51,534 nucleotides of DNA from Escherichia phage vB_EcoS_ULIM2: the sequence record OQ850291; one strand, given 5' to 3'. Under the pieces are notes generated by a model. That model saw only the letters and a list, made by a program, of their open reading frames with translations, ran no database searches and had not been told where the DNA came from. Position 1 is the stretch's first letter, and every line of letters begins with the position of its first letter. The translations under genes were made by a program, and so were the position numbers. This document shows, piece after piece, positions 21,881 through 51,534 of this stretch.

Positions 21881-22594
21881 ATGAAAGACTTTAATGATAT
21901 CGAAACTGTCGACTTTGCAGAAACAGGTTGCTCATTCACTCGCGAAGCAATAGCGTCAGGCGGTTATTATCAAGCATTGAAAACGCCAACCTGCAAAGAG
22001 ATTTCAGGCCGTCGATACAAGGGAACCAATACACCTGACGCCGTTCGTGATTTATGGTCAACTCCACGCGAGGTTATTGCATACCTTGAGGGGCGTTATG
22101 GGAAATATGATCTCGACGCTGCTGCAAGCGAGGAAAATAAAGTTTGCGAGAAGTTTTACTCCCAGGAAACAAACTGCTTAAAGCGTTGGTGGGGAAAGAA
22201 TAAGCACGTTTGGTTAAATCCTCCTTATAGCCGACCTGATATATTCGTCAAGAAGGCCATTGAGCAAATGGAGCACAACAATCAGATCGATATGCTTTTA
22301 CCCGCAGATAACTCTACGGCGTGGTTTACTGAGGCGCGACAGAACGCAGCTGAAATCATCTGGATTGAAGCGGACTTGACTGAAGATATCGACGGGAATG
22401 AATACGCACGATCCGGTCGCCTGTCTTTCATATCCGGTGAAACTGGAAAGGCCGTAGATGGTAATAACAAAGGTTCGGTAATTTTTATCATGCGCGAACT
22501 TAAAGAGGGTGAGGTACAGCAAACTCACTATATCCCAATCACAAGCATTTGCCCTTCGGTTAAAAACAAACGAGCAAAGGTAAGGAAAGTATGA
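21881..22594 (+). CDS. dam: DNA N6-adenine methyltransferase (Dam-like, 237 aa)
   Basis: WLNPPY catalytic motif IV (NPPY) typical of phage N6-adenine methyltransferases. Confidence 0.7.
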   Translation: MKDFNDIETVDFAETGCSFTREAIASGGYYQALKTPTCKEISGRRYKGTNTPDAVRDLWSTPREVIAYLEGRYGKYDLDAAASEENKVCEKFYSQETNCLKRWWGKNKHVWLNPPYSRPDIFVKKAIEQMEHNNQIDMLLPADNSTAWFTEARQNAAEIIWIEADLTEDIDGNEYARSGRLSFISGETGKAVDGNNKGSVIFIMRELKEGEVQQTHYIPITSICPSVKNKRAKVRKV

Positions 22595-22842
22595 TGAGCG
22601 AAAAAATGGTTCCTGTTAAATTAACTGAGCAAGGTTTATGGCTTCTTTATCGCGCTACGTGCTGCGAAATTATGGAGCAAAACGGATTGACTCAGGATGT
22701 TATTGGTTGCGATCTGTGGGAGTTCACTATTTCTCTTGATATGTCTTTCGATGAGATAAAAAATGAATATATCGAGCGTTGGCCTTCAATTATCCAGAAA
22801 GACGTAGAGGAACTTAAAGCAGATACGATCGTACAGCACTAA
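22591..22842 (+). CDS. Hypothetical protein (83 aa)
   Basis: ATGA overlap with the methyltransferase stop; AAGGAAAG RBS. Confidence 0.5.
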   Translation: MMSEKMVPVKLTEQGLWLLYRATCCEIMEQNGLTQDVIGCDLWEFTISLDMSFDEIKNEYIERWPSIIQKDVEELKADTIVQH

Positions 22843-22876
22843 TTGCTAAAAATACCCGGCGAAAGTCGGGTATAGT
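22835..22876 (+). promoter_or_regulatory. Box-type promoter
   Basis: CAGCAC-N3-TTGCTA (22835-22848), 22 bp, TATAGT (22871-22876), leader CATCGAAACGAAATGAGGAA. Confidence 0.5.
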
Positions 22877-22908
22877 TATTTCATCGAAACGAAATGAGGA
22901 ATCAGAAG

Positions 22909-23118
22909 ATGGCACGCATTAACGCAAACTTTTTCAATATCGCTCAACAGTCCGCAAAAATGGCTGTTCACATTACGAACAAGCAAGGCGGCAACTTCGA
23001 TTGGGATATTGCTATGAACTTCCTTAAAATGTCTTATTACCGTTGCTCAGTTGAAGAAGTCGAAGGATTCATCTCTGACGTGGAGAAATTAACTAATGCT
23101 GATAAAAAAGCAAGGTAA
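22909..23118 (+). CDS. Hypothetical protein (69 aa)
   Basis: ATG at 22909 follows the conserved leader and GAGGAA RBS; the track ORF starts upstream in the leader. Confidence 0.5.
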   Translation: MARINANFFNIAQQSAKMAVHITNKQGGNFDWDIAMNFLKMSYYRCSVEEVEGFISDVEKLTNADKKAR

Positions 23119-23368
23119 GCGCGAAGTGTGGGAGCACGCAAAGGAATGCGGCATCTCAGACGATATAGCATTAATTGCTAAATACTTTGATATAAAGGAT
23201 GTTAGCATTATCTCAAACGGCAAGATTTCATTTATGGAAGATATGCCGAGAAAAATGCATAGAGTTCCAGCAACTCCATCACTTGAGTTTTACCGCGAAG
23301 AGGGAAAGAGAATTGAGAGAGAAAGAAAATCCACAAAAAACGGAAAGTCTTCCAGGCTTAAATATTAA
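23096..23368 (+). CDS. Hypothetical protein (90 aa), overlapping the next ORF
   Basis: ORF-track ORF; N-terminal half looks protein-like, C-terminal half is purine-rich low complexity. Confidence 0.3.
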   Translation: MLIKKQGKREVWEHAKECGISDDIALIAKYFDIKDVSIISNGKISFMEDMPRKMHRVPATPSLEFYREEGKRIERERKSTKNGKSSRLKY

Positions 23369-23600
23369 TGCGGACGACTACCAGACGATCTGGATTGGGA
23401 AAAAACAGGTTAAGCAAATCCCTTTCTCTGACTGGTTGCCACCTGACTTTGTTAATGTGCTTTGCACTATCGGTATTGAGCAGGAGTTGCATATAGGTTA
23501 CTACTCACCAGGCCGAAACAGTATGATGCTTGAGGTTGACGGAAAACTTGTTGAGCTTAAATCTTCGGATCTAGGATTCTGGTTAAAGGCTGTGGCATGA
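23199..23600 (+). CDS. Hypothetical protein (133 aa), overlapping the previous ORF in another frame
   Basis: ORF-track ORF; C-terminal half looks protein-like; true start unresolved. Confidence 0.35.
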   Translation: MLALSQTARFHLWKICREKCIEFQQLHHLSFTAKRERELREKENPQKTESLPGLNINADDYQTIWIGKKQVKQIPFSDWLPPDFVNVLCTIGIEQELHIGYYSPGRNSMMLEVDGKLVELKSSDLGFWLKAVA

Positions 23601-23678
23601 AACTTTATTTTGCTGTAGTATTAACACCGCTAATTTCATTTTCAGTAATGTATTTCATTATCATTTAAGGATTAAAAT

Positions 23679-24830
23679 ATGTCACAAGCTAAAATCACTA
23701 CCGAGCAACTCGTCGAAGAGCGCATGAACGGCCTTACACTTCGAGAGATCGCGGAAAAGTACGGTATGCACATTCGCACTGTCGAGGCGCGTCACGCAAA
23801 ACTTGCAAAAGAAGGCCACTTCCACGGTAACGAGCATGTTGCTAAAAACGTGCCGGAAGGATTCATGGTAAAAGGTACATCAACGATGATTCGCGGAGAT
23901 GGGACCGAGGTAGTTCGCTGGGTTAAGACCGATCAGGACCGTGAGAAGATTGCGGCAATGATGGAAGCGGCGCGTATTGCATTCTGTGAAGACCTGCCTC
24001 GAGCAAAACCAACTGAGCTACTAACATCGCAAGGACTTACGACAGCGATGGGTAAGCTGGCGCTCTATCCGGTATTCGATCTCCATATTGGCGCGCTTGC
24101 TCATAAGCATGAGTGCGGAGAGAACTACTCTACCGACGTAGCGGAAAAAGTGCTTGGCGACTTCTTCAATTATGCGATCGATATTGCGCCGAACGCAGAG
24201 AAGGCTGTTCTGTTAATCGGCGGCGACTTCCTTCACTCTGACGGCCTTGACGCTGTTACCCCGGCAAGTGGTCACGTTCTAGATCAGGATTCACGATATG
24301 CGAAATTAGTGCATGTTGCGATTCGTTCGGTACGCCGAGCCATCGACAAAATGCTTATGAAACACAAAGAAGTCGAGGTTCAGGTTATCGAAGGGAACCA
24401 CGATCAGTCTGGGATGATTTGGCTGCGCGCTGCAATGTCGGCATATTATGAAGACGAGCCGCGAGTATTCGTTGACGTTAGTCCTATGATTCTGCATAAG
24501 ACTCGTTGGGGAAATACCTTGTTGGGATACACTCACGGTCACACTATGAAAAAGGCAGACACGCGACTTGCGGCAATGGCGGCAGATTTCCGATCAGACT
24601 TCGGTGAGAGCAAGTATGTGTATACTCATAGCGGTCACTGGCATCACCAGACAATCACTGAGCACTCACTCGGTATTGATGAGGTTCACGGCCAGTTAGG
24701 CGCGAAAGATGCATACGCAGCACGCGGAGGGTGGCGCTCATATCGCCAGGCGGCTGTAATTGTTTACGATAAGCAGTTTGGGGAAATCGGTCGTTTCATC
24801 TATCGTCCAGAAATGACAGGATCGCACTAA
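23679..24830 (+). CDS. Calcineurin-like metallophosphoesterase (383 aa)
   Basis: Phosphoesterase motifs in order: DLH, GDFLHSDG, GNHD, GHT, GHWHH. Confidence 0.6.
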   Translation: MSQAKITTEQLVEERMNGLTLREIAEKYGMHIRTVEARHAKLAKEGHFHGNEHVAKNVPEGFMVKGTSTMIRGDGTEVVRWVKTDQDREKIAAMMEAARIAFCEDLPRAKPTELLTSQGLTTAMGKLALYPVFDLHIGALAHKHECGENYSTDVAEKVLGDFFNYAIDIAPNAEKAVLLIGGDFLHSDGLDAVTPASGHVLDQDSRYAKLVHVAIRSVRRAIDKMLMKHKEVEVQVIEGNHDQSGMIWLRAAMSAYYEDEPRVFVDVSPMILHKTRWGNTLLGYTHGHTMKKADTRLAAMAADFRSDFGESKYVYTHSGHWHHQTITEHSLGIDEVHGQLGAKDAYAARGGWRSYRQAAVIVYDKQFGEIGRFIYRPEMTGSH

Positions 24831-51142: not shown

Positions 51143-51513
51143 TGAACTACTCACAGATTGAAAGGATGGCTCGCAAAGGCGTTGCTTTCTTCACCGATCC
51201 GTCAAGACCTATGAACCTGATAAAACAAGGTGAATACGGATATGATGAAAACGGATTTGAGATCCCACCAATGGAACAGGTTATTCCAATATCCGGCGCG
51301 ACGCGAAGACCTAACGCGCGTGAGATTGACGGTGAAACTATCCGCGCCTCAGATATTTTGGGGATCTTCAATAATGATCATGAAATAAACGAAGGTGACT
51401 ATATAGAGATTGATGGCATTCGTCATGTTGTCGTTGATGCTCGCCCGGTTCAGGCGTCACTGGAACCAATCGCCTATCGTCCAGTATTGCGGAGGGTATC
51501 AGTAGGTGGCTAA
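51142..51513 (+). CDS. Putative head-tail adaptor protein (123 aa), crosses the repeat junction
   Basis: ATG at 51142 with GGAGG RBS; its last 106 nt lie inside the terminal repeat and are duplicated at positions 1-106. Confidence 0.4.
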   Translation: MNYSQIERMARKGVAFFTDPSRPMNLIKQGEYGYDENGFEIPPMEQVIPISGATRRPNAREIDGETIRASDILGIFNNDHEINEGDYIEIDGIRHVVVDARPVQASLEPIAYRPVLRRVSVGG

Positions 51514-51534
51514 TTATCAAATTCGTAGATTTCA

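Follow-up and report, generated by a model that had tools for sequence, protein, structure and literature searches.

The closest described system to the locus studied here is a pair of small genes in the early region of coliphage T1. In the curated T1 record AY216660, CPTT1_062 (WBY66054.1), equivalent to 23096..23368 of our sequence, is followed by the 95-aa CPTT1_063/orf17 (AAP49982.1), which is annotated from a TTG equivalent to position 23313 together with a ribosome binding site equivalent to 23300-23303. Homologous pairs are found in other Drexlerviridae, namely NBD2 gp47/gp46, Rogue1_0055/0056, Rtp rtp59/rtp60 and ESCO41 gp36/gp35, at the same place upstream of the SbcD-like exonuclease. 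The downstream member of these pairs, hereafter gene 2, keeps the LPGL...IPFSDWLPPDF...YYSP...WLK motifs that are also present in our sequence; it lies in the -1 frame relative to the upstream member, hereafter gene 1, and its ATG is located 1-2 codons before LPGL, so arranged that the two genes overlap by 4 nt or are separated by a 2-nt gap. The window that we analyzed is a whole stretch of 51,534 nucleotides from Escherichia phage vB_EcoS_ULIM2 (sequence record OQ850291), a T1-like coliphage (Drexlerviridae, Tunavirus). Its positions 22850-23700 are 97% identical to phage T1 and are matched by 59-61 phage records at 86-97%. The window carries the same two genes as T1, in the same order and frames and with the same 56-nt overlap, TTG and ribosome binding site; the DNA of the pair is ~96-97% identical between the two phages, and there are few amino-acid substitutions, such as L-R-E-K-E in gene 2 of the window versus L-S-E-K-E in T1. 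In this study, we argue that these are very probably two separate small early-region genes, of which gene 2 is translated independently from TTG 23313 and therefore overlaps the end of gene 1 by 56 nt.

The setting of the gene pair is the T1 early region, composed of a Dam methyltransferase gene, three or four small genes and the gene of an SbcD-like exonuclease (Table 1), and throughout Drexlerviridae both proteins of the pair are conserved next to these two enzymes. Genes of this small cluster regularly overlap out of frame. The upstream homologue of T1 orf18 overlaps gene 1 by 23 nt, and an A6 run (23104-23109) lies inside that overlap. A terminator-like hairpin with a weak T-tail, ATACCCGGCGAAAGTCGGGTAT, is present at 22852-22873, directly after the gene at 22591..22842 and upstream of the gene cluster; the equivalent site in phage SA32RD is annotated as a rho-independent terminator. 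The count of promoter and terminator sites was not above that of shuffled sequence. At the far end of the window, positions 51408-51534 are an exact repeat of positions 1-127 (127 bases), apparently the k-mer overlap left when the assembly was circularised, in which case the phage genome would be ~51,407 bp.

Table 1. Features of the gene 1/gene 2 locus and its surroundings in the window
Feature	Coordinates	Strand	Basis or remark
Dam methyltransferase	21881..22594		
Upstream small gene, T1 orf18 / CPTT1_061 homologue, phrog_2180	22909..23118	+	T1 record has a 210-nt version with an ATG equivalent to 22909
Gene 1, 90 aa, T1 CPTT1_062 homologue, phrog_2817	23096..23368	+	Profile match, selection, stand-alone homologues
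5' extension of the 133-aa ORF, non-coding in its own frame, codes only for gene 1	23199..23312	+	pS = 0, pN = 0.065; no usable Shine-Dalgarno
Shine-Dalgarno for gene 2, GAGGG (GAAGG in many relatives)	23300..23304	+	8 nt upstream of the TTG, inside the gene 1 REEGK codons
Gene 2, 95 aa, T1 orf17 / CPTT1_063 homologue, phrog_4596, TTG start (putative)	23313..23600	+	Profile match, conservation
Out-of-frame overlap of gene 1 3' end and gene 2 5' end, 56 nt	23313..23368	+	Constraint switches frame at ~23330-23346
A6 run, non-conserved, no demonstrated role	23335..23340	+	Broken in most of 22 aligned sequences, frames unchanged
SbcD-like metallophosphoesterase / DNA repair exonuclease, T1 gp16 homologue	23679..24830	+	phrog_704 E = 1e-156; T1 annotation

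The initial annotation described two open reading frames here, ORF1 at 23096..23368 (90 aa) and ORF2 at 23199..23600 (133 aa), with a purine-rich tract in the region where they overlap. Both frames are real and lie on the plus strand, ORF2 being shifted by +1 against ORF1. The purine-rich tract is present, but the A6 run that was placed at 23334-23339 is actually located one base further right, at 23335-23340. To follow selection in each frame, pN/pS was calculated by the Nei-Gojobori method for all pairs of 22 distinct Tunavirus sequences, segment by segment. In the ORF1 frame, pN/pS is 0.023 over 23096-23198, 0.027 over 23199-23312, 0.31 over 23313-23345, 1.38 over 23346-23368 and 1.33 over 23369-23600. 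In the ORF2 frame, the corresponding values are 3.3 for the first segment, 0.86 for the third, 0.033 for the fourth and 0.10 for the last, while in the second segment all changes are non-synonymous (pS = 0). Constraint moves from the frame of gene 1 to that of gene 2 at ~23330-23346, and each frame is under purifying selection over its own gene only, as would be expected of an independently initiated pair. The earlier description of ORF1 as protein-like in its first half only does not agree with these values, since purifying selection in the ORF1 frame (pN/pS 0.02-0.03) reaches ~23312; constraint relaxes only past ~23330, at about residue 78 of 90, and seemingly unconstrained codons are limited to the last 7 (23348-23368). 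The matching description of ORF2 as protein-like in its second half only was correct. In 23199-23312, 19 of the 21 changes fall on third positions of the ORF1 frame, a substitution pattern from which it follows that codons 1-38 of the 133-aa ORF do not code for protein.

The same pattern bears on the proposal that gene 2 is the full 133-aa ORF read from ATG 23199, with a real 170-nt overlap, as in Shigella phage S2_02, CLB_P3 and LeonhardEuler. The stretch that would be added, 23199-23312, shows non-synonymous changes only in the 133-aa frame; it is absent from family members outside Tunavirus, and the homologous stretch contains in-frame stops in L034, L038 and L041. ATG 23199 itself is present, and its frame open, in 22 of 22 Tunavirus sequences, and the 133-aa version is annotated in some GenBank records; however, the AAGG in front of this codon abuts it without spacing and the predicted duplex has an energy of +0.6 kcal/mol, so that no usable Shine-Dalgarno is available. 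Moreover, at ~14% of positions inside the long ORFs of the window the +1 frame stays free of stops for 39 codons or longer, and against this background the 5' extension of the 133-aa ORF is unremarkable. We therefore regard initiation at ATG 23199 as very improbable, and the first 114 nt of the ORF would be an accidental open stretch. The overlap of 170 nt given in the initial annotation is right for the maximal ORFs and resulted from taking the longest ORF; as an overlap of genes, the supported value is 56 nt (23313-23368).

With regard to the start of gene 2, no conserved start codon other than TTG 23313 has a usable Shine-Dalgarno. This TTG is invariant in the 22 Tunavirus sequences, and the anti-Shine-Dalgarno duplex predicted before it has an energy of -6.3 or -5.7 kcal/mol in 22 of 22. 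Taken alone, the invariance of the TTG and its Shine-Dalgarno within Tunavirus is weak evidence because the same bases encode conserved gene 1 residues, and four consecutive invariant synonymous sites would be expected by chance with a probability of ~0.1 (a rough estimate). Gene 2 begins M-x-LPGL in all other lineages, and Tunavirus has no ATG there. Among 16 lineages compared, 12 have an ATG 1-7 codons before LPGL and no TTG at -12, and the four that have no ATG near LPGL (Tunavirus, L033, L034 and L040) all carry GAAGG or GAGGG followed by a TTG that precedes LPGL by exactly 12 codons; by an exact test, the probability of this complementarity is 1 in 1820, a figure to be read with the fact that the lineages are not phylogenetically independent. 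In L034, an in-frame TGA is located 7 codons upstream of the TTG, which is thus the sole possible start there. In L040, the TTG is paired with a different gene 2 subtype, one with an IME347-type body. In IME347 itself, the ATG of gene 2 aligns with ACG 23340-23342 of the window. This ACG was considered as a start for gene 2 and rejected, as it varies among Tunavirus (ACA, GCA) and has no Shine-Dalgarno. A third-frame ORF at 23368..23496, which opens with a TAATG stop-start, was rejected as well because the ATG varies between relatives, in which TAACG or TAGAT is found there.

Protein homologues agree with an independent, short gene 2. The match to phrog_4596 (E = 6.2e-37) covers residues 50-132 of the 133-aa ORF and positions 2-84 of the 85 in the profile. 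An exhaustive phmmer search of 1.84 billion protein representatives returned 15 relatives of gene 2, all of them 78-95 aa long; the matches begin at residues 1-10 of these relatives, with one exception (residue 18), and at query residues 11-31 (11-18 for most). Apart from a 133-aa maximal-ORF call, gene 2 relatives are at most 96 aa long, and the stand-alone homologues initiated at ATG measure 78-91 aa. Outside Tunavirus, NBD2, Rogue1, KLB19, ESCO41 and LF82-10, which represent five genera, have both genes with a 4-nt ATGA overlap and gene 2 in the -1 frame. The two genes are separated by a 2-nt gap in Rtp and overlap by 7 nt in Snitter, and in IME347 there is a 32-nt overlap with an ATG start for gene 2. 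Hanrivervirus aaroes and Klebsiella phage K50 have gene 1 and are devoid of gene 2. Relatives thus do carry two separate genes here, which is the outcome on relatives that the initial annotation had named as speaking against a frameshift or sequencing error.

The first of the other readings left undecided in the initial annotation, namely that one gene has been split in the window by a homopolymer sequencing or assembly error, finds some precedent in other public records. Shigella phage Sfin-2 (L036, MK972831, a partial genome) has A5 in place of A6 at 23335-23340 and GG in place of GGG at 23395-23397, and Sfin-6 (L037, MN393473) has the GGG to GG change at 23395-23397 only. These deletions fuse or truncate the genes and have given rise to spurious annotated CDSs (132 aa plus 37 aa, and 41 aa). 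In both phages the reading frame conserved in gene 2 is interrupted, for which reason the changes look like homopolymer indels of those records, and they are probably sequencing errors there. A protein from a Logan assembly, P0028, also appears to be a chimera of three reading frames. In Sfin-2, however, the lost A is not the only deletion, and together with the other one the frame in which gene 2 is conserved is destroyed; the window shows the consensus length. The 22 distinct Tunavirus sequences (the window and 21 others, T1 records under four accessions included) align over 23050-23650 (601 nt) with zero gaps, and in 57 of 59 GenBank records the stretch equivalent to 23096-23600 is likewise 505 nt long. 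As each frame is separately conserved and other genera have separate genes, we give an error in the window hardly any credence.

The second undecided reading is a +1 event at the A-run, 23335-23340, either ribosomal frameshifting (programmed or incidental) or transcriptional slippage, which would fuse residues 1 to ~80 of gene 1 to the gene 2 domain in a protein of ~165 aa. The switch of constraint between frames (~23330-23346) coincides with the A-run, and a fusion predicts the same; in addition, A AAA AAC would allow tRNA-Lys to re-pair in the +1 frame, and Tunavirus lacks an ATG adjoining the conserved start of gene 2. A run of six A residues is shorter than those usually linked to efficient slippage. 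A programmed +1 frameshift should show a shift site that is conserved where the frames join and a downstream frame that has no initiation of its own and never stands alone, and neither is found at this locus. Firstly, most of the 22 Tunavirus sequences have an interrupted A-run (e.g., CAAAGAAC) and yet keep both frames; among relatives, the run is also replaced by GCAAAGAGC, and in L034 there is no homopolymer at the junction at all. Secondly, a conserved Shine-Dalgarno and TTG belong to the downstream gene itself, relatives start gene 2 at its own ATG, the frame relation is the opposite one in seven lineages, and some relatives have no gene 2. Lastly, none of the 15 significant phmmer matches to gene 2 is a gene 1-gene 2 fusion, with which the profile search agrees. 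No RNA element was detected by an Rfam scan of 22500-24000 at E <= 1. We consider it very unlikely that the two frames are joined in this way. There is a slim chance that in the T1 clade, where A AAA AAC is kept, low-level +1 slippage might add a minor fusion product, at a locus that may exemplify start-codon turnover. Thus, of the three alternatives, two overlapping genes is the one supported, with a shorter overlap than had been supposed, and neither a homopolymer error nor +1 recoding is favoured.

It seems that two independently initiated genes are best understood as follows. Gene 1 would be translated from its own ATG and gene 2, in the +1 frame, from TTG 23313, with the GAGGG at 23300-23304, formed by the Glu-Glu-Gly codons of gene 1, acting as ribosome binding site. 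The fusion of the gene 1 stop and the gene 2 ATG in ATGA is the common arrangement in the family and may be the ancestral one. In the T1 lineage, the poorly constrained, lysine-rich tail of gene 1 would have come to read on into gene 2; the ATG by LPGL would have been lost and the upstream TTG would have taken over, adding ~11 unconstrained residues to the N-terminus. In comparison with the NBD2, Rogue1, Rtp and ESCO41 pairs, gene 1 of the window is ~10 codons longer, the ATG is gone, a TTG is found 12 codons upstream and gene 2 is in the +1 frame. The R-E-E-G-K codons of gene 1 that give the Shine-Dalgarno are also present in phages of the ATGA type such as Rogue1, suggesting that a pre-existing Shine-Dalgarno-like sequence was co-opted. 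Such a start-codon turnover would consist of the recruitment of a TTG behind a Shine-Dalgarno already contained in Glu-Glu-Gly codons, with the tail of gene 1 overprinted on the 5' end of gene 2. Conservation of each frame over its own gene, the separate homologues and the conserved Shine-Dalgarno and TTG are direct observations; from them we infer initiation at TTG 23313 and the direction of evolutionary change, and the overlap might also influence the relative expression of the two genes. In the literature on T1 and Drexlerviridae, we found no expression data for the gene 1/gene 2 locus.

The predicted structures of the two proteins are in line with the proposed gene boundaries in the case of gene 2. 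Its AF2 model has a mean pLDDT of 83.6; residues 1-20 are modelled with low confidence, and a confidently modelled small all-beta domain of seven strands comes after them. The N-terminal ~11 residues are a lineage-specific extension of low AF2 confidence, and the low confidence of residues 1-20 fits a dispensable N-terminal extension. The invariant residues of gene 2 are Y23, P37, W41, P43, S65, W90 and L91. A Foldseek search of the gene 2 model against PDB gave nothing with E < 0.1 or TM > 0.45. With the gene 2 family profile A2 (23346-23597), weak matches below significance were obtained to plant MBD5/6, in their methyl-CpG-binding domains (E = 0.037 and 0.16). A methyl-CpG-binding function was considered, given a Dam methyltransferase gene ~700 bp upstream, and rejected, since the matches are non-significant and Foldseek does not reproduce them.

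Gene 1 matches phrog_2817 (E = 1.7e-32) with residues 3-75 of ORF1 aligned to positions 2-75 of the 84 in the profile. Its relatives are stand-alone proteins of 77-91 aa; the exceptions are one 99-aa protein with a longer N-terminus and P0028, which comes from an error-ridden assembly. In the AF2 model of gene 1 (mean pLDDT 80), residues 1-46 form a strand, two helices and a beta-hairpin, and residues 63-85 a long C-terminal helix. Gene 1 had no match in PDB, either by Foldseek (best E = 4) or by profile search against PDB sequences; in Pfam there was only a sub-threshold hit to DUF7334 (17.4 bits; cutoff 27), and in BFVD there were uncharacterised phage homologues only. One viral protein in BFVD, A0A6G8QY82 (161 aa), has the N-terminal domain of gene 1 (51 aligned columns, rmsd 0.8, 53% identity), and it is possible that this domain may also occur fused to another part. 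A0A6G8QY82 is not among the relatives of gene 2.

The value of these findings lies mainly in annotation, as at least three treatments of the locus that exclude one another are found in T1-like GenBank records: the 133-aa ORF without gene 1, gene 1 with a gene 2 of 47 or 54 aa, and gene 1 with a 95-aa gene 2 from the TTG. Our comparison of annotations covered 23096-23600 of the window and loci that include L002, L003, L021, L024 and L026. The 90-aa and 95-aa proteins are both annotated in T1 AY216660, EF3-1, SA32RD and Lg3. In S2_02 and CLB_P3, the 133-aa ORF is annotated and gene 1 is omitted; gene 1 is likewise omitted in Chapo, where only the 95-aa gene 2 is annotated. In SH2 and T1 isolate MN153797, a truncated gene 2 of 54 or 47 aa is annotated, in which the invariant IPFSDW motif is cut. 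These truncated versions correspond to a gene 2 that starts at TTG 23436 or GTG 23457 and does not overlap gene 1. Their use in some GenBank annotations and the existence of phrog_38834, a family of 54 positions, speak for such starts, but they would remove residues that are invariant or near-invariant throughout the family (LPGL, Y23, and I36, P37, D40 and W41 of the IPFSDW motif) together with a stretch that is under strong purifying selection in the gene 2 frame from 23346 on. We consider them exceedingly unlikely. The comparative evidence supports a 90-aa gene 1 and a 95-aa gene 2 putatively initiated at TTG, which is the curated T1 annotation. A non-ATG start buried within an upstream gene is easily overlooked by gene callers. 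In a Logan contig (SRR10023924; L040), the gene finder missed a gene 2 homologue at 951-1190 that is intact and has a TTG 12 codons ahead of LPGL.

Finally, the locus may be compared with programmed +1 frameshifting such as that of prfB (RF2). The likeness consists of a downstream frame in the +1 position and a Shine-Dalgarno-like purine tract upstream of the junction. Unlike prfB, the window has no conserved shift site and neither an in-frame stop nor a rare codon at a conserved position; no fused homologues were found, and its downstream gene has an independent start, as judged from the conserved TTG and Shine-Dalgarno, and stands alone in relatives. The locus has no bearing on recoding biology. 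The overlapping pair is an ordinary one, already known from the T1 genome.
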